A stretch of 64,000 bases of DNA, taken from Clostridiaceae bacterium. GTDB taxonomy: Bacteria > Bacillota > Clostridia > DUPQ01. The DNA is taken from contig DUPQ01000008.1 of assembly GCA_012838235.1 (NCBI GenBank), forward strand, positions 4,523 through 68,522, given 5' to 3'. Numbering within the stretch: position 1 is the stretch's first letter; each line of letters begins with the position of its first letter. Made by a program: the position numbers and the translations under genes. The notes under the pieces are model-generated. The model saw only the letters and a list, made by a program, of their open reading frames with translations. It had not been told where the DNA came from and did no database searches. Positions 2-11,681 of this stretch are shown piece after piece.

Positions 2-1048
2 CTTTTCGGTGACGGAAGCAAGATGAGCAAATCCAAAGGTAATATCTTATATGCCGATGACCTTTCCGCTCTTTTCGGTGTAGATGAAGTCAGATATTAT
101 GTATTAAGTGAGATGAATTATGCCAATGACGGCATAATATCGCACAGACAGATAATTGAGAAGATTAATTCCGATTTAGCCAATGTTCTGGGAAATCTTG
201 TTAACAGAACCGTTACAATGCAACACAAATACTTTGAAGGCACTGTTAAAAAGCCCGCATCGCTGCTACCGGAAAACCAAGCGGACAGAGAACTTATCGA
301 GCTGACAGAGAAAACGCCTGATAAAGTTTGTGATTTGATGATGCGGTATAAGGTCAGTGAAGCCATTCATGAGATTATGACTTTGGCAAAGCGTTGCAAT
401 AAATATATTGATGAAACTCTGCCCTGGACACTTTTTAAAAACGAGGAAGACCACGAAAGACTGAAAAAGGTTATGTACAATCTTTTAGAAGGAATAAGGG
501 TGGTATCGGTTTTACTGTATCCTTTTATGCCTTCCACTTCGGATAAGATAATTTCACAGCTCAATACAAAGGAAACAACTTTTGCTTCAACCTATACTTT
601 CGGAAAGTTGGAAGACGGCATTAAACTTGGGAAACCCGAGATACTCTTCAACAGGATAGATACCGAAAAGAAACTGCAGGAAATTGAAAAGAGTGACAAA
701 CAAAAGGAGCAAGACCTGAATGTAGCATTAATAGGGATTGAGGATTTTGCAAAAATTGAACTTAAGACCGCTAAAATAGTAAGTTGTGAACCTGTAAAAG
801 GAGCCAAGAAGCTTTTGAAACTGCAGGTGGAAACAGACAATAAAACCCGTCAGATAGTATCGGGCATAGCCGAGTATTATACATGTGACGAGTTAATAGG
901 AAAAACCGTTGTGGTTATAACCAACTTGAAGCCGGCCGTGTTGCGGGGTGAGACAAGCGAAGGTATGCTGTTAGCCGCATCGGATAAAGACAGACTTTCT
1001 TTAGTCACTATAGATAGGGAAATGCCTACGGGTTCAAAGATATCTTAA
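2..1048 (+). CDS. metG: methionine--tRNA ligase, C-terminal part (5' end upstream of window)
   Basis: Frame is open from nt 2. First residues LFGDGSKMSKSKGN contain the class-I aaRS KMSKS loop. The C-terminal ~100 aa (IEDFAKIELKTAKIVSCEPVKGAKKLLKLQVE...GETSEGMLLAA) look like the EMAP/Trbp111-type tRNA-binding domain of long MetRS. Confidence 0.93.
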   Translation, partial: LFGDGSKMSKSKGNILYADDLSALFGVDEVRYYVLSEMNYANDGIISHRQIIEKINSDLANVLGNLVNRTVTMQHKYFEGTVKKPASLLPENQADRELIELTEKTPDKVCDLMMRYKVSEAIHEIMTLAKRCNKYIDETLPWTLFKNEEDHERLKKVMYNLLEGIRVVSVLLYPFMPSTSDKIISQLNTKETTFASTYTFGKLEDGIKLGKPEILFNRIDTEKKLQEIEKSDKQKEQDLNVALIGIEDFAKIELKTAKIVSCEPVKGAKKLLKLQVETDNKTRQIVSGIAEYYTCDELIGKTVVVITNLKPAVLRGETSEGMLLAASDKDRLSLVTIDREMPTGSKIS

Positions 1049-1086
1049 TATACTTGTATATATTTCGATTGTCGCTTAGCAGGAGT

Positions 1087-2052
1087 TTATGCCCAATACA
1101 TAGTGCCTTTGGGCTCAAAAATCATTGTCTCTTTTAAGAAGGAGATAGCTTTTTTCAGGCCTTCCTGCCCGCTCATTAAACTGTCTTCATGTTCAATGGA
1201 TATTACATGATCATATTCAGCCATTCTTAATTCCGCAAAAATATCATTCCATACCTGTCTGTCATGGCCGGTACCCACAGTGCGGAACAGCCAGGACCGC
1301 TGCGGTTCATCGCTGTAAGGTTTTGTATCCAAGACTCCGTTTACTTGGGAATTGGGGTAATATATTTTTGTATCTTTCGCATGGAAATGATAAATTGCTC
1401 CTTTTAATGCCCGGATTGCTTTGATGATATCGATGCCCTGCCAGAAAAGGTGTGAAGGATCGAAGTTTGCTCCTATTACCGGTCCTACGGCATCTCTAAG
1501 TTTCAGGCAGGTTTCGGGATTGTATACGCAGAAACCCGGATGCATTTCCAAAGCAATCTGATGCACATTATGTTTCTTTGCAAATTCCACCTGCTTGGTC
1601 CAGTACGGTATAAGTACAGTATTCCACTGATAATCCAGAATCTTTAAAAAGTCATCGGGCCAGGGACAGGTCACCCAGTTGGGATATTTTGCATTATCAT
1701 GGTCACCTGGACAACCGGAGAAGGTTACTACCGTATTCACTCCCAGTTTCTCCGCCAGGATTATTGTTTTTTCAAAATCCTCCTGATAGGCGGCAGCTAT
1801 TTTCTTATCGGGATGAACTGCATTACCGTGACAGCTTAAAGCACTTATCTCCATGTCATATTTTTCCGTCAATTTTTTAATCTTCTTTATTTCTTCCGGC
1901 TTGTTATAAATCTTTTTAGCATCAAGATGCGCCGTTCCCGGAAATCCTCCCGTGCCTAATTCAATCGCCTGAACACCAAGATCTTTTAAGTAAATTATTG
2001 CATTTTCCAAACTCATAGAGCTTAAAACAACGGTAAAAACACCTAATTTCAT
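1087..2052 (-). CDS. sugar phosphate isomerase/epimerase family protein (xylose-isomerase-like TIM barrel)
   Basis: 321-aa ORF with the spaced E/D/H/E-type strand-end motifs of this fold (AIELG, ALEMHPG, HFHAKD, ISIEHED). Substrate cannot be inferred. Confidence 0.75.
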   Translation of the reverse strand: MKLGVFTVVLSSMSLENAIIYLKDLGVQAIELGTGGFPGTAHLDAKKIYNKPEEIKKIKKLTEKYDMEISALSCHGNAVHPDKKIAAAYQEDFEKTIILAEKLGVNTVVTFSGCPGDHDNAKYPNWVTCPWPDDFLKILDYQWNTVLIPYWTKQVEFAKKHNVHQIALEMHPGFCVYNPETCLKLRDAVGPVIGANFDPSHLFWQGIDIIKAIRALKGAIYHFHAKDTKIYYPNSQVNGVLDTKPYSDEPQRSWLFRTVGTGHDRQVWNDIFAELRMAEYDHVISIEHEDSLMSGQEGLKKAISFLKETMIFEPKGTMYWA

Positions 2053-2191
2053 GCTATCAATTTGTATAACTCAGTCGTTACCTGCAATATCGGACTGCTT
2101 ATACTCCTCCTCCTTTGTTTTATAACTATATTATACATTTATTCCACTCCTTGTGTTATACTTTTGCTTGAGTATCGATTGGGAGACGGAT

Positions 2192-2797
2192 ATGGAGCAG
2201 CACAAAACAAAACTTATGACAACAAGAAACATGGCTAAAATGGGTATTTTAGGAGCGGTAGCGGGAGTGCTTATGCTTCTGGAAATCCCGTTGCCTTTTG
2301 CTCCTGCTTTCTATGAAATAGATTTGAGTGAGGTCGCGGTTTTTTTGGGAACTTTCGCAATGGGACCGGTGGCGGGAATAATCATAGAGGCGGTTAAGAT
2401 ATTGGTCAACCTTGTCATAACCGGTACAGCCACTGCCGGAGTGGGTGAATTTGCCAATTTCTTAATAGGGTGCTGTCTGGTGGTTCCGGCAGGTATTATA
2501 TATAAAAGGAAGAAGAATATAAAGAATGCCATTATAGGTATGCTGGTAGGTATCGTATCCATGACTGTGGCCGGAGCGTTGTTGAATTATTTTCTTCTTA
2601 TACCTACATATGCAAAAGCTTTCGGAATGCCGGTTGAGGCAATAGTTGAGATGGGAACAAAGATCAATCCTAACATAAACTCTCTTTGGGATCTTATCTT
2701 ATTGGCAAATGTGCCGTTTAATCTCTTAAAAGGGGTATTGAGCGGTTTTATAACTTTCCTTATCTATAAAAGGCTGTCGCCGATACTTCACAAATAG
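2192..2797 (+). CDS. ECF-transporter S component (RibU-like substrate-capture subunit)
   Basis: About 200 aa with roughly 6 hydrophobic helices. Resembles RibU-type S components (LLEIPLPF..., ...FNLLKG...). I chose ATG 2192 behind GGGAGA rather than the track start at 2153. No ECF A/T genes are adjacent. Confidence 0.6.
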   Translation: MEQHKTKLMTTRNMAKMGILGAVAGVLMLLEIPLPFAPAFYEIDLSEVAVFLGTFAMGPVAGIIIEAVKILVNLVITGTATAGVGEFANFLIGCCLVVPAGIIYKRKKNIKNAIIGMLVGIVSMTVAGALLNYFLLIPTYAKAFGMPVEAIVEMGTKINPNINSLWDLILLANVPFNLLKGVLSGFITFLIYKRLSPILHK

Positions 2798-2911
2798 CGA
2801 TTTTTATGCAAGATGTACAAAAAGAGCGATATTTATTTGTAGACATACCATCTTATATTCCTACCCGTAAAGTGATAAAATATACGAAGAAATGAATAGG
2901 AGGAATCATAT

Positions 2912-4036
2912 ATGGCAAAAGTTATATTAAAAAACGTATATAAAAAGTATGAGCCCAACCGTGGCGGCATAACAGCTGTTTCCGACTTCAATCTTGTTAT
3001 TGAAGACAGGGAGTTTTTAGTTCTGCTCGGACCGTCGGGATGCGGAAAAACAACAACACTCAGAATGATAGCGGGATTGGAAGATATCACCGCCGGTGAA
3101 ATTTATATCGGGGACAGAATAATCAACGAAGTACACCCCAAAGACAGAGATATAGCAATGGTTTTCCAGAACTATGCATTGTATCCTCACATGACCATTT
3201 TCGATAACATGGCATTCGGTCTTAAATTAAGAAAGATGCCTAAAAATGAAATTCGTCACAGAGTTCATGCAGCAGCAAAGATATTGGAAATCCAGCATCT
3301 GCTTGACAGAAAGCCCAAAGCTCTCTCCGGCGGACAGAGACAGAGGGTTGCATTAGGTCGTGCTATTGTTCGTGAACCTAAAGTCTTCCTTATGGACGAG
3401 CCGCTTTCCAACCTTGATGCTAAATTGAGAGCACAGATGCGTGTTGAGTTGACAAAACTTCATCAGAGACTTAAGACAACATTCATATATGTTACACATG
3501 ACCAGGTAGAAGCTATGACAATGGGTACCAGAATCGTTGTTATGAGAGCAGGATTTATTCAGCAGGTTGATCCTCCTCAGATTATGTATGATAACCCCGT
3601 TAACATGTATGTTGCAGGATTTATCGGAACACCTCAGATGAACTTCTTAAATGCAACCATTGAAGAAAAAGGCAAGGATGTATGGATAGACATAGGCGGA
3701 ACCAAGCTTAAATTCTCTGAAAAGAGAGCAAAGAGTATAATCGGTAAAGGATACGACGGAGTGGAAGTTATACTCGGAATCAGACCGGAGCATTTCCGTG
3801 ATGAGCAGGTATTCCTTGACCAGATGCCTGAAACCACAATAGAGGTTAAGATTGATGTTGTGGAAATGATGGGACCGGAAGCTCTGTTGTACTTCTCATT
3901 TGCAGACAGCAATATTATTGCAAGAGTAAGTCCTTCCACAAAGGCAAGACCGGGATCTACCATTAAGGTAGCTATAGATACGGTCAGAGTACACATATTT
4001 GACAAGAAGTCGGAAAAGACTATATTTGCAGAATAA
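2912..4036 (+). CDS. sugar ABC transporter ATP-binding protein, orphan MsmK/MsmX/UgpC type
   Basis: Walker [10 protein letters not shown], signature LSGGQRQR, Walker B FLMDEP, and a C-terminal MalK-like regulatory/TOBE region. AGGAGG RBS. No permease or binding-protein gene is nearby, as for shared multitask ATPases. Confidence 0.9.
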
Positions 4037-4155
4037 ATAATATAACCATAATTTCGCAGAAAACTCCCGCCAATCAGGTGGGAGTTTCTCATTAGAATAA
4101 AAGCAAAAGATAACTGTAAATCGGCAAACTAATACAAGAATATTTAAAAACTGTA

Positions 4156-4184
4156 TTGTAATTGTTCCGATTATGCATTATACT
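4156..4184 (+). promoter_or_regulatory. sigma-A-like promoter for the Fic operon (TTGTAA-17 nt-TATACT)
   Basis: -35 TTGTAA at 4156-4161, 17-nt spacer, -10 TATACT at 4179-4184, about 40 nt upstream of the GTG start at 4225. Confidence 0.45.
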
Positions 4185-4224
4185 TTGTTTATATTTAATA
4201 TTCCGGAATCAGGAGGTATGAGAG

Positions 4225-5148
4225 GTGGAATATTTAACGGTTACACAAGCAGCTGAAAAATGGAATGTTTCCACTCGTCGTGTTCGCCTGCTTTGTGCCA
4301 ACGGAGAAATCGAAGGAGTTATCCGTAAAGGCAACTTATATATGATACCTTGCGATACTGAAAAGCCGTTGGATAAGCGGAAATTACCTCACAAAAGAAA
4401 GCATGGCAAATTTGCAAGTTTACTGACATCAATAGATATTAAAAAAGTAAAACTCGATAGTATGCGCCCTCTTACCGCGGGAGAAATAAAGCGTTTACGC
4501 AACGACTTTATGGTGAACTTCACGTATAATTCAAACGCCATTGAGGGTAACACCCTGACACTCAAAGAAACCGCTATGGTACTTGAGGGTATGACAATAG
4601 ATAAAAAACCGTTAAAAGACCATCTTGAAGCGGTCGGTCATCGTGATGCATTTCAATATATCGAAGATATTGCGCAAAACAAAGTGCGTCTTAAGGATAC
4701 GGAAATAAGAGCCATTCATTCTTTAGTGCTGATGGACAGACCGGATGATAAAGGTGTCTACCGCCGTATTCCCGTTACAATTACAGGTGCATATGCCGTC
4801 CCTGTGCAGCCATATCTTATAGAACCGAAAATGACGGACTTACTTACAAGAAATGAGGAAAGAAAAAAGACTATGCACCCGATTGAACGCATTGCCCGTT
4901 TTCATCTTGAATTTGAGGGTATACACCCGTTTATTGACGGTAACGGCAGAACCGGTCGGTTAATCTTAAATCTTGAACTTATCCGCAACGGTTATCCCGC
5001 TATCAATGTTAAGTTTACGGATCGCAAGCGGTATTATGATGCTTTCGATGCATTTTATCGTGACAGAAAAGCCGATGATATGGTTTTACTTATTGCGGAA
5101 TATGTAGGGGAGCAACTGGACAGATATTTGGAGATTGTGAAATTTTGA
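4225..5148 (+). CDS. Fic family adenylyltransferase with N-terminal HTH
   Basis: GTG start behind AGGAGG. N-terminal HTH-like TVTQAAEKWNVSTRRVRLLCANGEIEG. Inhibitory-type S-x-x-x-E-G element (YNSNAIEGNT). Canonical Fic loop HPFIDGNGRTGR. Confidence 0.9.
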   Translation: MEYLTVTQAAEKWNVSTRRVRLLCANGEIEGVIRKGNLYMIPCDTEKPLDKRKLPHKRKHGKFASLLTSIDIKKVKLDSMRPLTAGEIKRLRNDFMVNFTYNSNAIEGNTLTLKETAMVLEGMTIDKKPLKDHLEAVGHRDAFQYIEDIAQNKVRLKDTEIRAIHSLVLMDRPDDKGVYRRIPVTITGAYAVPVQPYLIEPKMTDLLTRNEERKKTMHPIERIARFHLEFEGIHPFIDGNGRTGRLILNLELIRNGYPAINVKFTDRKRYYDAFDAFYRDRKADDMVLLIAEYVGEQLDRYLEIVKF

Positions 5149-5162
5149 AAAGGAGATATGAC

Positions 5163-6266
5163 ATGAATACTACTAATTTGGATAAGGTTGTACAGGCCTA
5201 TATTGACAACTTTGACTATGTAAATGGTGATGAGCATCAAGAATACTATAAATGGGAAGCATTTAAACACTTTAAAGATAATTGGGATATTGATGCAGAG
5301 AATTTTGTAGAAATGTTTAAGGAGTCGGTGAAACTGACATACAATTTGATAGATAATAAGGCAGTGAGCCCGACCAACGGTATTGTGAAGCTTGCCGAGC
5401 GATCTGAGCTTACGGAAGTTATAAGGGAAATGTTTAGAATGCTGTTTATTGCTGATGACGGCAATATTGTACAACGTCAGAAACGGATTGAAGATTTCAG
5501 AGATAGGGTAAATGACTTACTTGATAAATACGAGCCCGGCAAATGGAGGTACCAGCATGATTTTCGAACAGTATTGTCCTACCTTAATATGCGTTATCCT
5601 AAAGAGAATTACCTCTTTAAGGCAACAGAAGCTAAGGAGTTTATGTACTGTATCGAATATCCTGATGATTTCGGAAGTGGAAAAAGTTTTAATTTATCCC
5701 GTTATTATCGTATGTGCGATGCACTTCTTGAGAAGATAAAAGATACACCTGAACTTATGCAAGCTCACAAGAACCGACTGACGGATACAATGTTGTCTGA
5801 CGATGATTATCACATTATGGTTTTTGATATCATTTATTGTGTCACAGTATACAAACTGTACGCAGACATTGCTATCAAAAAACCTGTTAAAAAGTCATCG
5901 GTAAAGCAACAACGAAATGCAAAAGCGGAAGAGTTAAACCTTGAACTTGATTCGGTTAATGCCGAGTTAGATACTGCACTTATTGAAAGAAGTAAGATTG
6001 ATGATATTGATGTTGTGGGTTGGAAAATCCGGCATAAGGTTTTTGGGCCAGGAACAGTCATATCGCAAGATGAGGATAGAATAATAGTTAAATTTGCAAA
6101 AGGTGAGAAGAAATTTGAATTACCAGGGGCATTTTCCGATGGCTATTTAATTTGTGAAGATCAGGATATTATTGAAATATTTAGTGAAATAGATAGATTG
6201 GATAAAAAAATATCTTCCTTGCGTAGCTCAATAAATAGAATAACTTCCACTTTAAGCAGATTGTGA
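5163..6266 (+). CDS. hypothetical protein: McrB-N-terminal-like module + coiled coil + PcrA/UvrD-Tudor-like C-terminal domain
   Basis: ATG 5163 lies 6 nt after AAAGGAGA and 14 nt after the Fic stop. N-terminus contains YYKWEAFKHFKDNWDIDAENF. K/E/Q-rich helical region (KKSSVKQQRNAKAEELNLELDSVNAELDTALIERSK). C-terminus is WKIRHKVFGPGTVISQDEDRIIVKFAKGEKKFELPG. No Walker motifs. Confidence 0.7.
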   Translation: MNTTNLDKVVQAYIDNFDYVNGDEHQEYYKWEAFKHFKDNWDIDAENFVEMFKESVKLTYNLIDNKAVSPTNGIVKLAERSELTEVIREMFRMLFIADDGNIVQRQKRIEDFRDRVNDLLDKYEPGKWRYQHDFRTVLSYLNMRYPKENYLFKATEAKEFMYCIEYPDDFGSGKSFNLSRYYRMCDALLEKIKDTPELMQAHKNRLTDTMLSDDDYHIMVFDIIYCVTVYKLYADIAIKKPVKKSSVKQQRNAKAEELNLELDSVNAELDTALIERSKIDDIDVVGWKIRHKVFGPGTVISQDEDRIIVKFAKGEKKFELPGAFSDGYLICEDQDIIEIFSEIDRLDKKISSLRSSINRITSTLSRL

Positions 6267-6333
6267 AAAGCAGCTCATGTTGTTTAATAGTCGATGATAG
6301 TATAAAATTATTGTGTTAAATACGGAGAAGAAA

Positions 6334-6828
6334 ATGGCATTAAGGACAATACGTAAGGAAGGCGACGAAATATTAAGAAAAAAGTCCAGGGAAGTCACAT
6401 CTTTTGATGACAGATTGCATACTTTAATTGATGATATGTATGAAACAATGGTAGCTGCACCGGGATTGGGACTGGCTGCGGTACAGGTGGGAGTACTCAG
6501 AAGGGTTGCCGTTATTGAAATAGATGATAAGAAGTATGAGTTGATAAACCCCGTCATAATCCAATCTGAAGGCGAAGATATCGATGTGGAAGGATGCTTA
6601 AGTCTGCCGGATTATTACGGAACGGTCAAAAGACCTATGAAGATAAAGGTACGCTATCTTGACAGGTACGGAAAAGAGCAATATGCCGAAGCCGAGGGAT
6701 ATGCAGCTCATTGCTTCTGTCATGAATTGGACCATATGGACGGTATTTTATTCAGAGATAAAGTTATTGAGGAAATTGATCCTGCGGATTTGGAAGAAAG
6801 AGAAAAGCAGAGTGAAGAAGATAAATAA
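6334..6828 (+). CDS. def: peptide deformylase
   Basis: Motifs GLAAVQVG, EGCLSLP and HELDH. ATG 6334 behind GGAGAAG; the track start 6313 is an upstream extension. Confidence 0.95.
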   Translation: MALRTIRKEGDEILRKKSREVTSFDDRLHTLIDDMYETMVAAPGLGLAAVQVGVLRRVAVIEIDDKKYELINPVIIQSEGEDIDVEGCLSLPDYYGTVKRPMKIKVRYLDRYGKEQYAEAEGYAAHCFCHELDHMDGILFRDKVIEEIDPADLEEREKQSEEDK

Positions 6829-7762
6829 TATCATTTTTATGGGTACTCCGGATTTTGCATTGCCTTGTCTTATTGCATTGATTGAAAACGGATATACCGT
6901 TAATGCCGTTATAACACAGCCTGACAGACCCAAAGGCAGGCATAATGTTGTGGAGTATTCGAATATAAAGAAGAAGGCGATAGAGTATGACATACCTGTT
7001 CTGCAACCGGAAAAAATACGCAAGAAAGAATGGGTGGAAACCATTTCAAAGATAGGTTGCGATTTAGCGGTGACCTGTGCATTCGGACAGATTCTTCCGC
7101 AAAGTATCTTAGATATACCAAAATACGGCACCATTAATGTTCATGCATCGCTGCTTCCCAAATACAGAGGTGCCTCCCCCATGCAAAGAGCGATAATAGA
7201 AGGGGAGAAGGTAACCGGTGTGACAACAATGCTGACCGATATAGGAATGGATACCGGAGATATGCTGTTGAAAATGGAGACCGACATAACAGAGGAAGAT
7301 GATATATGTTCTTTACATGACAGACTTTCTTTGATGGGAGCAAAACTCCTTATAGACACCGTAAAACTGTATGAGCAGGATAAGATAACGCCTGTTAAGC
7401 AGGATAACGATAAAGCCACATATGCTCCCATGATAAAAAAAGAAGAGGGCAGATTGGACTTTAACCTTGACTCATACAGACTGTTTAATCTTGTAAGAGC
7501 ATTTAATCCGTGGCCGGGAACATTTACAACTTACTGCGGAAAAACACTGAAAGTGTTAAAGGCGGATTATTCTTTGGAAGACTATAATAAAGATGTTGAC
7601 AACGGTACTGTTATATCCATAGATAAAGAGAGAATGGCTGTTAAATGCAAAAAGGGCATATTGTATATAACAGAGTTACAGTTTGAGAATAAAAAGGCAA
7701 TGCATATATCAAAATGCGGTCATAATATGCCGTGTGATATGGTTTTGGGTTGTGACGAATAA
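6812..7762 (+). CDS. fmt: methionyl-tRNA formyltransferase
   Basis: N-terminus (V/M)KKINNIIFMGTPDFA, motif HASLLPKYRGASPMQ, and a C-terminal tRNA-binding domain. The start is GTG 6812 (overlapping the def end) or ATG 6839. The track start 6659 lies inside def and is an artefact. Confidence 0.92.
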   Translation: MKKINNIIFMGTPDFALPCLIALIENGYTVNAVITQPDRPKGRHNVVEYSNIKKKAIEYDIPVLQPEKIRKKEWVETISKIGCDLAVTCAFGQILPQSILDIPKYGTINVHASLLPKYRGASPMQRAIIEGEKVTGVTTMLTDIGMDTGDMLLKMETDITEEDDICSLHDRLSLMGAKLLIDTVKLYEQDKITPVKQDNDKATYAPMIKKEEGRLDFNLDSYRLFNLVRAFNPWPGTFTTYCGKTLKVLKADYSLEDYNKDVDNGTVISIDKERMAVKCKKGILYITELQFENKKAMHISKCGHNMPCDMVLGCDE

Positions 7763-7809
7763 TGATGAGTGCATTGATTTTCTTTTGATAAAAATATATA
7801 ATTTTCGAC

Positions 7810-8841
7810 ATGAGCGCTCCTTCTATTCATATACTTTCCTATACACACAACGAACTTAAAGACCTTTTTCAGGAATACGGTTTGAAAAGGTACAGGGCTT
7901 TGCAGGTTTTAGACTGGATATATAACAAGAAGGTATTTGATTATTCCTTAATGACCAATATAAGTAAGGAAGATATTGAGATTTTGCAGGCAAACTTTTC
8001 TTTGGAGTTACCTGTAATAGAAAAGAAGCTTGTGTCGGTAGACGGTACCGTTAAATATCTTTTTCGTTATTCCGATAATGCAACGGTGGAAAGTGTGCTG
8101 ATGGACTATGATTACGGAACCTCCATCTGCATTTCCAGTCAATCGGGATGCAAGATGGGCTGTGTATTCTGTGCCTCATCAACAGTACCTTTCAGCCGGG
8201 ATTTGTGGGGTTATGAGATGACCGCTCAGATTCTTAAAGCGGCACAGGACAGCAACAAGACCATATCCAGAGCGGTGGTAATGGGTATAGGGGAGCCGTT
8301 TGATAACTATGATAATCTTGTAAATTTTCTCAATGTTATTAACATGAAAGAAGGGTTTAACATGGGAGGAAGACGCATAACCGTTTCCACCTGCGGAATA
8401 GTACCCAAGATATATGAGTTCGCCGATTTGTGTCTTCAGGTCAATCTGTCGGTATCGCTGCATGAAGTTACCGATGACAGGCGCTCGGCAATAATGCCGA
8501 TAAATAAAAAATACAACATCTCTTCCCTTATAAAAGCATGTGAATACTATTTCGAGAAGACCAACAGGAGAGTTTCTTTTGAATATGCTCTGATCCCGGG
8601 GTCTAATGACTCCTTAGAGCATGCGCGACGCTTGAGTGCTTTATTGAAAAATGTAATGTGTTATGTAAATGTAATTCCGGTAAATCCTGTTGAAAATATG
8701 AAAACAGTTCAAAACAGCAAAAATCTTTCGCCTTTTTGTGCTATACTGAAAGCACATGGCGTGCCCGTCACCATCAGAAGAGAACTGGGCAGAGACATTG
8801 AAGCCGCATGCGGGCAGTTAAGGAGACAGCATGATATTTAA
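7810..8841 (+). CDS. rlmN: 23S rRNA/tRNA A2503/A37 C2-methyltransferase, radical SAM
   Basis: CxxxCxxC cluster motif CKMGCVFCAS, C-terminal ...EAACGQL, and conserved position between fmt and stp. Confidence 0.92.
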   Translation: MSAPSIHILSYTHNELKDLFQEYGLKRYRALQVLDWIYNKKVFDYSLMTNISKEDIEILQANFSLELPVIEKKLVSVDGTVKYLFRYSDNATVESVLMDYDYGTSICISSQSGCKMGCVFCASSTVPFSRDLWGYEMTAQILKAAQDSNKTISRAVVMGIGEPFDNYDNLVNFLNVINMKEGFNMGGRRITVSTCGIVPKIYEFADLCLQVNLSVSLHEVTDDRRSAIMPINKKYNISSLIKACEYYFEKTNRRVSFEYALIPGSNDSLEHARRLSALLKNVMCYVNVIPVNPVENMKTVQNSKNLSPFCAILKAHGVPVTIRRELGRDIEAACGQLRRQHDI

Positions 8842-9583
8842 TTACGCTTCGTATACCGATATCGGGCAGGTAAGAGGAAATAATGAAGATTATCATATCG
8901 TCATTCCCTTTGATGAGCATAACGAATTTGCTGCTGCCGTTGCCGACGGTATGGGCGGTCATCTTTTCGGTGAGATAGCCAGTAAAACAGCAATAGACTG
9001 TTTTGAGAAGAAAATAAGGGACAGACGCTTCAAGAACTGCAACAATATAGAGGATTATCTCTTTAATATATGTAAAACGGCTAACAAAGAGATACTGGAC
9101 TTCAGTAAAAAGCACAATGTCTTTTCCGGAATGGGTACCACCTTGGATGCCATTTACATAAAAGATGATAAACTTCATGTTATACATATAGGCGATTCAA
9201 GGATATATACCGTGTATAACAATGAAATAAAGATGATAACAAAAGACCATTCGTATGTTCAGCAACTTATTGATAAAGGCGATATAACCGTTGATGAATC
9301 CCATAACCATCCCAACAGAAATATTATTACCAAAGCACTGGGCATATCCGATGTGCCGGAACCGGATATCTATGATATGACATTGGATTGCTGTGAATAT
9401 ATACTGCTTTGCACGGACGGTCTTACCAACATGCTTGACGATACGGATATTTTGAATATAATTAATCAGGAAACCGATTTGGAAGAAAAAGTCAAGGATC
9501 TTGCGCAAAAAGCCAATGAAAAAGGCGGAACCGACAATATCACCATAATTCTTATCAAAGCGGACAATAATCCGGAGGAATAA
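8831..9583 (+). CDS. prpC: PP2C-family Ser/Thr protein phosphatase (Stp/PrpC)
   Basis: Motifs RGNNED, ADGMGGH, IGDSR, CTDGL and GGTDNIT. Overlaps the rlmN end by 11 nt and precedes prkC. Confidence 0.92.
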   Translation: MIFNYASYTDIGQVRGNNEDYHIVIPFDEHNEFAAAVADGMGGHLFGEIASKTAIDCFEKKIRDRRFKNCNNIEDYLFNICKTANKEILDFSKKHNVFSGMGTTLDAIYIKDDKLHVIHIGDSRIYTVYNNEIKMITKDHSYVQQLIDKGDITVDESHNHPNRNIITKALGISDVPEPDIYDMTLDCCEYILLCTDGLTNMLDDTDILNIINQETDLEEKVKDLAQKANEKGGTDNITIILIKADNNPEE

Positions 9584-9584
9584 A

Positions 9585-11681
9585 ATGAATCCTGTTATAC
9601 TCAATAACAGATATGAGCTTCTAAGCAAGATGGGCATAGGCGGAATGGCTTATGTATATAAGGCAAAAGATAAAGCGCTCAACCGAATTGTAGCGATAAA
9701 AACGCTTAAAGATGAATATGCTCAGGATAAAGATTTTATAAAACGCTTCAAGGATGAAGCATTATCGGTAGCAAAACTGTCACATGAAAGCATAGTCAAT
9801 GTCTATGATGTAGGATATGACAATAACATGAACTACATTGTCATGGAATGTGTTGAAGGTACCACACTATCCAACTATCTGGAGTCGGCAGGACCTTTGG
9901 ATATAAAGGAAGTGGTGGATATTTCCATGCAGATTTTTGCGGCTTTGGAACATGCACATAACAACGGTATTATTCACAGGGATATCAAACCGCAGAATAT
10001 ACTGATATCCAAAAACGGAAGAATAAAAGTAACCGATTTCGGTATAGCCAAAGCGATAAATGCGCAGACTCTGACCACGGATAATAAAACATTCGGATCG
10101 GTCCATTACATATCTCCCGAACAGGCTAAAGGCGGTTTTTTAAGTAGCAGCACCGATATTTATTCTACAGGAATAGTTATGTATGAGATGGCAACAGGGC
10201 ATGTGCCCTATGATGCCGACACTCCTATATCCATAGTAATGAAGCATCTGCAGGATACTCCCATACCTCCGATTGATTACAGAAGAGATATGCCGGAAGA
10301 ACTCAACAAGATAATTCTTAAGGCAATACAGAAAAAACCGTCGGACAGATATCAGACAGCAGCCGATGTAATGGCAGATTTAAAGAAACTGAATAATAAT
10401 GCCAATTCTAAAGGCGATATTACATTGGACTTTATAAACGGAGAGGTTCTGCCTTCCGATGAAACGGTGACCTTGCCTGAAGTTACGGAAGATGATTTGT
10501 TTTTAGAAGAAGACAATGCAATTGTCAGAGGAAATACCGGAAAAGTAATCAAAATTAAAGAAAAAACCGATAAAATAACCGGTCCCAGACTGATAAATTA
10601 CGATGAGGAGTACAATGTTCCCCTGATTTACGCAAGAGGCAGAAAAAAGAAAGAGAAGAAATACTTTTTCACCACTCTTATAGCTTTAATCTGTGTACTG
10701 TCATTATCGGCCTTTTTTATTGTTTTCGCAATAGATGAGATGGCTAAAGTAGTGGTTCCCGAACCTAAAGAGTATGAAGTATTAAATTATGTTACATACG
10801 AGTATGAAACCATAAAAAAGAAACTGGAAACGGATTTCAATATTTCTGTATTAATGAAAGAAGCATACTCCGATGAAACACCTCCCGGTATAATAATGGA
10901 CCAGGATGTGGAACCGGGCAGAATTTTCAAAGAAGGTGCCAAGAATACCATTACATTTACGGTAAGTGTGGGAAGTAACTATGTGGAAGTTCCCGAGTGT
11001 GTCGGTAAGGATTATCGTATTGCGGAAAATATAATAATAAATGCAGGGCTTATCCCGGAAAAAGTAGAACAATATAACCAGGATATCCCGGCAGGAGAAG
11101 TGTATGCCGTATCTCCCTCTGAAACGATTAAAGTTAAATACGGAGAAACGGTTAAAATATATGTTTCTCTCGGTTCCGAATTTGAAAAGACAACGGTGCC
11201 GGATCTGTTCGGGTTGACAAAGGAGAAAGCTGCGGGAGCGTTACTGGAAAGAAACCTCATAATGAATGTAATGTCGGAAGAAGAGGTACCCGGTAAAGAG
11301 TCTCTTGTATCTTATCAGTATCCGGCAGCCGATACCGAGGTATATGAAAACAGTACCATAGATATAAAGCTCTCGGTGGATTACGGAGATACCGTGTATG
11401 AAGATATAACCGTTAAATACACATTTGACCCTACAATAGCGGAACTTGCCGGTATGGAAATGCCCATAACCTTGAGGTTCAAATTCGAGTATTCCGATCA
11501 GGATGAGGATTTTCAGACAACTGCGGTTATTTCTTCCATTGAAAAGTTGCCCTATCAAAGAGATGTCCGCATACCTGCAAAAGGCGAAACCAAAATGACT
11601 GTATTTATAGGCTCGGTTATCTATAAAGAACCGATAATATACAAATATTTCGACCACTATAAAGAAACCCCGGAACCGTAA
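9585..11681 (+). CDS. prkC: Ser/Thr protein kinase with three PASTA repeats
   Basis: Hanks kinase motifs (GIGGMAYVYKA, HRDIKPQNIL, DFG, SPEQ). One TM segment (FFTTLIALICVLSLSAFFIVFAI). Three ~65-aa PASTA-like repeats, then a C-terminal beta-rich domain. Confidence 0.93.
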   Translation: MNPVILNNRYELLSKMGIGGMAYVYKAKDKALNRIVAIKTLKDEYAQDKDFIKRFKDEALSVAKLSHESIVNVYDVGYDNNMNYIVMECVEGTTLSNYLESAGPLDIKEVVDISMQIFAALEHAHNNGIIHRDIKPQNILISKNGRIKVTDFGIAKAINAQTLTTDNKTFGSVHYISPEQAKGGFLSSSTDIYSTGIVMYEMATGHVPYDADTPISIVMKHLQDTPIPPIDYRRDMPEELNKIILKAIQKKPSDRYQTAADVMADLKKLNNNANSKGDITLDFINGEVLPSDETVTLPEVTEDDLFLEEDNAIVRGNTGKVIKIKEKTDKITGPRLINYDEEYNVPLIYARGRKKKEKKYFFTTLIALICVLSLSAFFIVFAIDEMAKVVVPEPKEYEVLNYVTYEYETIKKKLETDFNISVLMKEAYSDETPPGIIMDQDVEPGRIFKEGAKNTITFTVSVGSNYVEVPECVGKDYRIAENIIINAGLIPEKVEQYNQDIPAGEVYAVSPSETIKVKYGETVKIYVSLGSEFEKTTVPDLFGLTKEKAAGALLERNLIMNVMSEEEVPGKESLVSYQYPAADTEVYENSTIDIKLSVDYGDTVYEDITVKYTFDPTIAELAGMEMPITLRFKFEYSDQDEDFQTTAVISSIEKLPYQRDVRIPAKGETKMTVFIGSVIYKEPIIYKYFDHYKETPEP

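Follow-up and report, generated by a model that had tools for sequence, protein, structure and literature searches.

Related systems and the locus under study

In class I Fic proteins, the inhibitory helix is contributed by a small separate antitoxin. A Fic gene whose product is predicted to carry such a helix itself lies, together with a downstream open reading frame (ORF) designated ORF2, in a 64,000-nucleotide stretch of DNA from a Clostridiaceae bacterium (assembly GCA_012838235.1, contig DUPQ01000008.1, positions 4,523 to 68,522), hereafter called the window. The two genes stand side by side on the + strand. The Fic gene, whose product begins with a helix-turn-helix (HTH) segment, occupies positions 4225-5148 of the window (GTG start, 307 residues), and ORF2 occupies positions 5163-6266 (ATG start, 367 residues). 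The comparisons reported below indicate that they are very probably two independent accessory modules, inserted successively into the spacer between an ABC ATPase gene and def, rather than a two-gene system. The loci used for comparison are designated by L numbers.

The window Fic resembles FICD, BtFic and CdFic in its HPFxDGNGRxxR loop and in an N-terminal (S/T)xxxEG helix that falls on the TVAIEGN segment of FICD (E234), and its Glu-His spacing of about 130 residues is that of E234 and H363 in human FICD. Unlike FICD, which has a TPR/transmembrane region, it starts with an HTH_17 domain of the excisionase/MerR-like type. The combination of a class II Fic domain with a DNA-binding domain recalls SoFic, which is reported to AMPylate EF-Tu, to require dimerization and to bind its own promoter (bioRxiv 10.64898/2026.07.09.737422). 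An E. coli Sofic has been reported as an abortive-infection toxin accompanied by a small downstream antitoxin (PMC12249575). PADLOC matches the window protein to PDC-S04 candidates (1.2e-35) and to its SoFic model (4.3e-27). The protein is nevertheless not an ortholog of SoFic: with the NCBIfam equivalog NF046030 it reaches 41.6 bits where 550 are required, the solved SoFic structure matches it in the loop region only (E ~2.5e-7), and its HTH is N-terminal and of another family, whereas in SoFic the Fic domain is followed by a C-terminal DNA-binding domain. Since SoFic is reported both to bind its own promoter and to AMPylate EF-Tu, a promoter-binding, self-restrained toxin is a reasonable working model for the window Fic, which by analogy would be a self-restrained AMPylase/deAMPylase.

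The arrangement of a Fic gene with an adjacent and probably co-transcribed gene is also found in FicT-FicA and VbhT-VbhA. Unlike in these class I systems, however, the predicted inhibitory helix of the window Fic is intramolecular, its neighbor is a protein of 367 residues without the motif, and the match to VbhT reaches 13.7 bits against a cut-off of 800. The ORF2 protein has likenesses of its own. Its N-terminal domain is homologous to the N-terminal region of McrB-family GTPases, a position that in McrB is the site of the target-recognition module (PMC11090510). Unlike McrB, it lacks an AAA+/GTPase domain and in most cases has no McrC beside it, and the N-domain is not of the DUF3578/ADAM, YTH or EVE type. 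The C-terminal part of ORF2 is predicted to share the Tudor fold of PcrA/UvrD, a domain that in PcrA/UvrD contacts RNA polymerase and UvrB (PMC8318588, PMC5397179), and by analogy it may dock on the same partners. Unlike that of PcrA/UvrD, the Tudor domain of ORF2 is flanked by coiled coils, and P0325, a fusion protein, is the one case in which it is joined to a helicase.

Fic and ORF2 are not a conserved pair

One genome per GTDB species was scanned for ORF2 homologs, and 80 loci were fetched, in 79 of which ORF2 could be placed. Fic genes were sought within 6 kb on either side, by tblastn with the window Fic and by a regular expression for the Fic loop applied to all ORFs. An adjacent Fic gene was found in none of the 79 loci, and any Fic gene or Fic motif in only two of the 80: in L004 the Fic gene lies 2 kb upstream of ORF2, with intervening genes, and the one in L051 is encoded on the other strand. 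Conversely, no ORF2 homolog is present in the 83 loci of the window's Fic clade (72 metagenomic loci and 11 further ones; Fic identity 52-97%, with one outlier at 30%). Fic and ORF2 do not constitute a conserved two-gene system. An earlier annotation of this DNA, the sequence-only reading, had proposed that they might, and this distribution is the outcome that it had named in advance as speaking against its proposal.

The two genes also differ in their closest relatives at the DNA level. Positions 4155-5142 of the window share 80% nucleotide identity with Fic modules from L100-L104, and positions 4119-5138 share 74% with copies from Amedibacterium; for positions 5148-6238, the identity with ORF2 genes from L089-L090 and L091-L093 is 70%. 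The foreign Fic homology begins at 4119 or 4155, that is, at the conserved promoter and half-site region described below, and extends to within 6 nt of the Fic stop codon, while the foreign ORF2 homology starts 15 nt before the ATG. Fic and ORF2 thus have separate DNA ancestries, with a junction around the Fic stop codon.

Three states of the locus are found in related genomes. In sister taxa (Def 88%, 82% and 78% identical), the ABC ATPase gene is followed by def at a distance of about 105 nt, with neither Fic nor ORF2 between them, in the order metG, a gene of the AP-endonuclease-2 family, an ECF S-component gene, the ABC ATPase gene, def, fmt, rsmB, rlmN, stp, prkC, rsgA. When the window is compared by blastn with L183, positions 2-4036 and 6297-7750 align at about 80% nucleotide identity and 4037-6296 are unmatched. 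In L116 and L185, whose Fic proteins are 96-97% identical to that of the window, the order is ABC ATPase, Fic, 67 nt, def, without ORF2; window positions 2-5150 correspond to L116 772-5926 (96.3%) and 6263-11237 to L116 5938-10916 (94.7%). The third state, with ABC ATPase, Fic, ORF2 and def in succession, is that of the window and of 15 contigs with identical ORF2 from several sequencing projects, eight of which are displayed (L081-L088). Because L116 and L185 have Fic without ORF2, the region is not one two-gene insertion, and ORF2 is dispensable in these sibling strains. The earlier proposal of an accessory two-gene insertion was therefore correct about the accessory nature of the genes, the ABC ATPase gene being directly followed by def in sister taxa, but not about a single event. 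The expectation of priA 5' of def, which served it as reference context, is irrelevant here: as the sister-taxon loci show, it was the ABC ATPase gene that ancestrally preceded def in this lineage.

The segment absent from L116 comprises 1112 bp (5151-6262, + strand), with the AAGGAG ribosome-binding site (5150-5155) and almost all of ORF2; L185 is a second ORF2-less sample. Its edges relative to L116 are marked by an exact 11-nt direct repeat, AGATTGTGAAA (repeat D14, + strand), the left copy of which lies in the last Fic codons (5132-5142) and the right copy of which spans the ORF2 stop codon (6258-6268). About 1.7 repeats of 11 nt are expected by chance somewhere in the region, as against ~7e-5 for copies at both indel edges. 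The Fic protein ends in ...IVKE* in all relatives, including L116, and in ...IVKF* in the window, where the short hairpin found 3' of Fic in L116, GTGAAAGGCTTTTCAC, is replaced. A simple deletion between the two repeat copies in the window sequence would not have produced the sequence of L116, and it is therefore more likely that ORF2 was inserted than that it was lost in L116 and L185.

The HTH-Fic protein and its promoter

The Fic domain (PF02661) was identified at residues 158-251 (E = 7.8e-20, 72 bits against a cut-off of 24), and the HTH-like segment that the sequence-only reading had noticed is HTH_17 (PF12728), which at residues 3-44 (4231-4356) just exceeds its cut-off (27.3 bits against 27). 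The inhibitory motif SNAIEG corresponds to residues 103-108 (4531-4548), and the Fic loop, HPFIDGNGRTGR, to residues 234-245 (4924-4959), where it fits the HxFx(D/E)GNGRxxR pattern. The distance between them is about 130 residues; the same motif had been described earlier, at a spacing of about 100 residues that does not hold. In phmmer alignments, the segment 'ynsnaiegntltl' falls column for column on 'yhtvaiegntltl' of FICD, which includes the inhibitory Glu234, and the top relatives of solved structure are human FICD (2e-27), BtFic (3CUC, 5.5e-23) and CdFic (4X2E, 7.8e-22). The (S/T)xxxE(G/N) motif is thus in the same chain as the Fic core, N-terminal to it, and homologous to TVAIEG of FICD. 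This homology supports the assignment of the protein to class II, as a probably self-inhibited Fic with an AMPylation-type loop; both the loop and the auto-inhibition element had been recognized before the Pfam match and the FICD alignment were available. By these comparisons, the Fic half of the locus appears to be an ordinary class II, FICD-like enzyme.

The control region of the Fic gene (4119-4184, + strand) was delimited by a promoter scan and by an alignment of 11 diverged Fic loci (A4). A -35 element, TTGTAA (4156-4161), is separated by a 17-nt spacer from a -10 element, TATACT (4179-4184), as had been read from the sequence. The scan alone is insufficient, its overall yield being at chance level (10 sites, against 11.1 expected from shuffled sequence); the promoter at 4156-4184 is supported because both hexamers are conserved in most of the 11 Fic loci, in which the surrounding DNA has diverged. 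The inverted half-sites AATCGG (4119-4124) and CCGATT (4167-4172) flank the -35 element and are nearly invariant in the same alignment. They may form an operator for the HTH of the Fic protein, which would then control its own promoter and hence any gene downstream. The ribosome-binding site of Fic, AGGAGG (4211-4216, + strand), is likewise conserved in A4. From the Fic stop codon to the ATG of ORF2 the gap is 14 nt, ORF2 is preceded by an AAGGAG ribosome-binding site (5150-5155), and the scan detected no terminator-like site between the two genes on the + strand; this arrangement, including the absence of a hairpin, is as originally described.

The Fic clade and its cargo

The Fic clade is very common, with at least 8,000 homologs, many of them 80-88% identical, in unrelated Firmicutes. 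In Amedibacterium intestinale, a Fic gene of the clade stands alone between housekeeping genes. On a mobilizable element with relaxase and TnpV genes, in contrast, Fic is followed after 19 nt by an N6/N4 methyltransferase gene and a ResIII helicase gene, an arrangement similar to type III restriction-modification. Fic proteins 87-88% identical, with exactly the same 19 nt and Mod/Res genes, occur in L100-L104, L107, L109-L111, L115 and L131, and relaxase and TnpV genes lie upstream of Fic in L100-L104; Fic, Mod and Res here form a recurrent module that is carried by a mobilizable element. A literature search found no description of the HTH-Fic clade with type III restriction-modification.

Among 60 full-length Fic loci, the 54 downstream neighbors fall into 33 clusters, and 20 of the 54 are on the same strand within 40 nt and belong to nine unrelated families. 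These tight neighbors include type III Mod/Res (12), Mrr with an HsdR-like helicase, a GmrSD fragment, an SNF2 helicase, a YobI-like NTPase, an MmeI-like methylase, DUF6650 and a radical-SAM pair. DNA homology between Fic loci ends directly past the Fic stop codon. The clade is horizontally mobile among anaerobic Firmicutes and usually heads variable cargo of restriction type, most often type III restriction-modification.

Architecture of the ORF2 protein

An AlphaFold2 model of ORF2 (5163-6266, + strand), built on the family alignment A1, has a mean pLDDT (predicted local distance difference test) of 91.5 and a pTM (predicted TM-score) of 0.71. It consists of four parts: an all-alpha N-domain (residues 1-235, 5163-5867), a long helix of 30 residues (residues 247-277, 5901-5993), a Tudor-like five-strand beta-barrel (residues 286-325, 6018-6137) and a C-terminal helix of 33 residues (residues 334-366, 6162-6260), all encoded on the + strand. 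In a Foldseek search of the PDB, the barrel matched the C-terminal domain of Thermus thermophilus UvrD (7egt_B) with a probability of 1.00, a root-mean-square deviation of 1.0 Å over 35 columns and 37% identity, followed by matches to 7egs_B, 6yi2 and 9dqs. The barrel contains the GxxVxHxxFGxGxV signature (GWKIRHKVFGPGTV). PF21196 remains below its gathering score (13 bits against 23.9, E = 0.095), and the PDB profile gives E = 0.13. On the model, the barrel is predicted to have a Tudor fold of the PcrA/UvrD type.

Searches of ORF2 against Pfam, NCBIfam, PADLOC and PHROGs gave nothing above threshold, in agreement with the earlier statement that the partner of Fic was unrecognized, and PADLOC 2.0 returned no family at E <= 1. 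PDB sequence profiles and Foldseek searches of the PDB and BFVD gave no fold match for the N-domain, only the Tudor barrel being matched; a resemblance to MutY/OGG was discarded as noise (TM-score ~0.2). Inspection of A1 by eye revealed no convincing HEPN-type Rx4-6H motif or other catalytic signature in the N-domain. The (S/T)xxxE(G/N) motif is absent from ORF2, no AAA_5 or other NTPase domain was matched by Pfam or NCBIfam, and no McrC gene is adjacent in the window. The N-domain does have relatives among larger proteins. Residues 6-230 of ORF2 are homologous to residues 200-423 of a 1069-residue McrB-like AAA+ protein of L089 (27% identity, E = 3e-23; 1e-34 with a hidden Markov model, HMM), and the N-domain matches residues 1-219 of an 'AAA family ATPase' encoded directly upstream of mcrC on pCY186 of Butyrivibrio proteoclasticus. 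It is also present in a phage genome, as indicated by L178 (phage NatCom_35866, PV036449.1), where a 952-residue protein (3953-6811) encoded beside a DNA methyltransferase gene matches ORF2 residues 19-153 (35% identity, E = 5e-16).

The ORF2 family and its neighborhoods

Full-length homologs of ORF2 number about 173 after clustering at 90%; all have about 370 residues and none has a Pfam domain. A search of 1.84 billion cluster representatives yielded 391 clusters (50% identity) at E <= 1e-30 and 1,489 at E <= 1e-10. Among them is P0325 (1469 residues), a DEAD/ResIII and Helicase_C helicase fused to a complete ORF2 module (residues 1110-1464). ORF2 represents an unannotated family of Clostridia, no description of which was found in the literature. 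The best match among GTDB species representatives is at most 59% identical. ORF2 was also considered as a plasmid or phage gene and rejected as such: it matched two of 72,556 plasmids and, partially, one phage, and is essentially chromosomal and borne by metagenome-assembled genomes.

The closest foreign homolog (71% identity) is that of L089, where it overlaps the stop codon of McrC. Positions 1-10500 of L089 form a defense island with AbiH, a small HTH_17 protein, the 1069-residue McrB-like protein, McrC, the ORF2 homolog, a 961-residue protein kinase and TnpV; the ORF2-type N-domain thus occurs twice in one operon, once fused in the McrB-like protein and once free. The second-closest homolog (70%) has IS110, integrase and resolvase genes around it. 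Other tight neighbors of ORF2 encode GmrSD, a second McrC, a UvrD-helicase/PD-(D/E)XK protein, an ADP-ribosylglycohydrolase, a radical SAM/SPASM protein, DnaE and a GH88 hydrolase. A same-strand neighbor within 40 nt is found in only 29 of the 79 loci. The 499 proteins encoded within four genes on either side form 400 clusters, and the direct neighbors represent 122 Pfam families. The largest neighbor cluster, a Na/Pi cotransporter found in eight loci, was rejected as a partner, as it reflects vertical synteny in related genomes of Eubacterium and other Lachnospiraceae; this clustering revealed no fixed partner. In searches of the neighboring genes with N-domain and Tudor HMMs, matches were limited to the McrB-like genes of L089 and L090 and to one Tudor-bearing gene in L063. 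There, a GmrSD gene precedes the ORF2 homolog, and two genes further downstream a 270-residue ORF (7689-8501) matches the Tudor HMM with its first 44 residues (E = 1.6e-08). The sub-clade of L003, L005 and L067 has a small ORF of about 90-110 residues, ORF2, and an ADP-ribosylglycohydrolase gene 8-27 nt downstream. ORF2 is a promiscuous accessory gene, with restriction-leaning company and no obligatory partner.

A model of successive insertions and its alternatives

If the two modules were acquired successively, as is very probable, an HTH-Fic gene complete with a conserved promoter of its own (module 1, ~4119-5148) would have arrived in the ABC-ATPase/def spacer. The AMP-transfer site of the enzyme would be restrained intramolecularly, by the SxxxEG helix, and the AATCGG/CCGATT half-sites of the promoter would be bound by the HTH. 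The Fic clade is horizontally mobile and, on mobilizable elements, usually precedes interchangeable cargo of restriction type. Module 2 (5151-6262) would be a later, strain-variable insertion of a promoterless single gene into the last Fic codons, which would have changed the final Fic residue from E to F and replaced the post-Fic hairpin still seen in L116, so that ORF2 would be read through from the Fic promoter. Fic and ORF2 are thus probably co-transcribed in the window strain. The ORF2 protein might tentatively be viewed as a coiled-coil dimer acting as an adaptor or sensor, and its Tudor barrel might, with equally low confidence, dock on RNA polymerase or UvrB, as in PcrA/UvrD. Its N-domain would do what the corresponding domain does in McrB-like GTPases, which is presumably to recognize a target, here some nucleic-acid feature.

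Several points weigh against the view that the two modules are independent and were acquired one after the other. The gap of 14 nt without a terminator argues strongly for co-expression of Fic and ORF2, and a new functional link between them may exist in the window strain. The ORF2-positive state is stable, since it was assembled from several independent samples. The juxtaposition may be non-random in function, the cargo of Fic and the neighbors of ORF2 both leaning towards restriction. Furthermore, the order of events is deduced from the indel, the genes of the fetched loci are crude longest-ORF calls, and the search for Fic around ORF2 was limited to 6 kb on each side and to tblastn and the regular expression.

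Were Fic and ORF2 a dedicated system, whether as toxin and sensor or with ORF2 directing the Fic enzyme to its target, their spacing, their common promoter without an intervening terminator and their presence together on 15 contigs of the window species would be explained. This is very unlikely, however, in view of the absence of the adjacent pair from the 79 ORF2 loci and the 83 Fic loci, the retention of Fic without ORF2 in the near-identical strains L116 and L185, and the distinct origins of the two DNA segments, which join around the Fic stop codon; moreover, Fic has its own predicted inhibitory helix and occurs alone, for instance in Amedibacterium. Much of this also bears on the idea that ORF2 is an antitoxin or regulator of Fic, like FicA/VbhA of class I or AS1 of E. 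coli Sofic. ORF2 is indeed a downstream gene that is probably co-transcribed, for which the reported anti-Sofic gene provides a precedent (PMC12249575), but at 367 residues it is not small, and it lacks the (S/T)xxxE(G/N) motif. The sibling strains and all other Fic loci examined lack ORF2, so that Fic is tolerated in its absence, and an antitoxin role is scarcely credible. A housekeeping function linked to the def-fmt/translation neighborhood has next to no probability: ORF2 adjoins def-fmt-rlmN, and some of its homologs lie beside dnaE or the Na/Pi cotransporter gene, but neither the sister taxa nor the sibling strains have it, its surroundings differ greatly between loci, and no GTDB species representative matches it at more than 59% identity.

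A greater, though still minor, probability attaches to the possibility that HTH-Fic marks a generic cargo slot, in which restriction-type genes, including ORF2, are exchanged immediately 3' of it. Fic would then act for any such cargo, either by controlling its transcription by means of the HTH and promoter or as a reserve toxin causing abortive infection when the cargo is inhibited, following the logic of PrrC/EcoprrI, and the coupling would be to the position and not to ORF2 itself. The close same-strand spacing of 20 of the 54 downstream neighbors, from nine unrelated and nearly all restriction-like families, is in line with this, as are the loss of homology right after the Fic stop codon, the conservation of the promoter and putative operator, the McrB-type N-domain of ORF2 and the position of ORF2 homologs directly after McrC in L089 and L060. 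On the other hand, the clade also occurs alone beside housekeeping genes, its link to cargo is one of genomic context alone, and the apparent diversity of cargo may partly reflect life on mobile elements. ORF2 itself might be a stand-alone surveillance or adaptor protein, in which a free McrB-type recognition domain, held as a dimer by coiled coils and attached to RNA polymerase or UvrB by way of the Tudor barrel, would couple recognition of foreign or modified nucleic acid to transcription; it would be carried as promoterless cargo behind HTH-Fic leaders that also host type III restriction-modification, Mrr, GmrSD and SNF2 genes. This proposal is speculative and rather improbable as a whole.

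Other features of the locus

The accessory region as a whole (4037-6296) has no counterpart in sister taxa by blastn, and homology to them resumes at 6297-6333 (+ strand), in the promoter and leader of def, as aligned with L183, L184 and L179. Upstream, a hairpin, AAACTCCCGCC / GGTGGGAGTTT (4061-4087, + strand; inverted repeat I9), lies 3' of the ABC-ATPase stop codon and is likely the terminator of that gene. The GC profile reveals no sharp foreign island, Fic and ORF2 having GC fractions of 0.34-0.42 and the flanks being alike. Rfam searches of positions 3500-7000 and of the whole window gave no RNA element, only two distant tRNAs.

In the sister taxa L179, L181 and L183, rsmB (16S rRNA m5C methyltransferase, ~410 residues) stands between fmt and rlmN; it is missing from the fmt/rlmN gap of the window (7763-7809) and from L116 and L185, about 1.16 kb of L184 being replaced by about 11 bp in the window. 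The mechanical ORF list places fmt at 6659-7762, starting with a TTG codon inside def (6659); on identical contigs, fmt is called from the equivalent of window position 6812, with a 17-nt overlap with def.

Significance

The idea of a new Fic-based two-gene defense or toxin system fails the comparison and should not be carried forward. The locus offers instead a clean, datable case of two accessory genes stacked in one intergenic spacer, with all three states extant, and it draws attention to a widespread HTH-Fic clade that is habitually placed ahead of exchangeable restriction-type cargo. The remaining novelty is the ORF2 family, which combines an N-domain of McrB type and of unknown fold with a predicted Tudor domain of the RNA-polymerase-binding type, and which may provide a lead for work on the specificity domains of McrBC or on the contacts of PcrA/UvrD with RNA polymerase.

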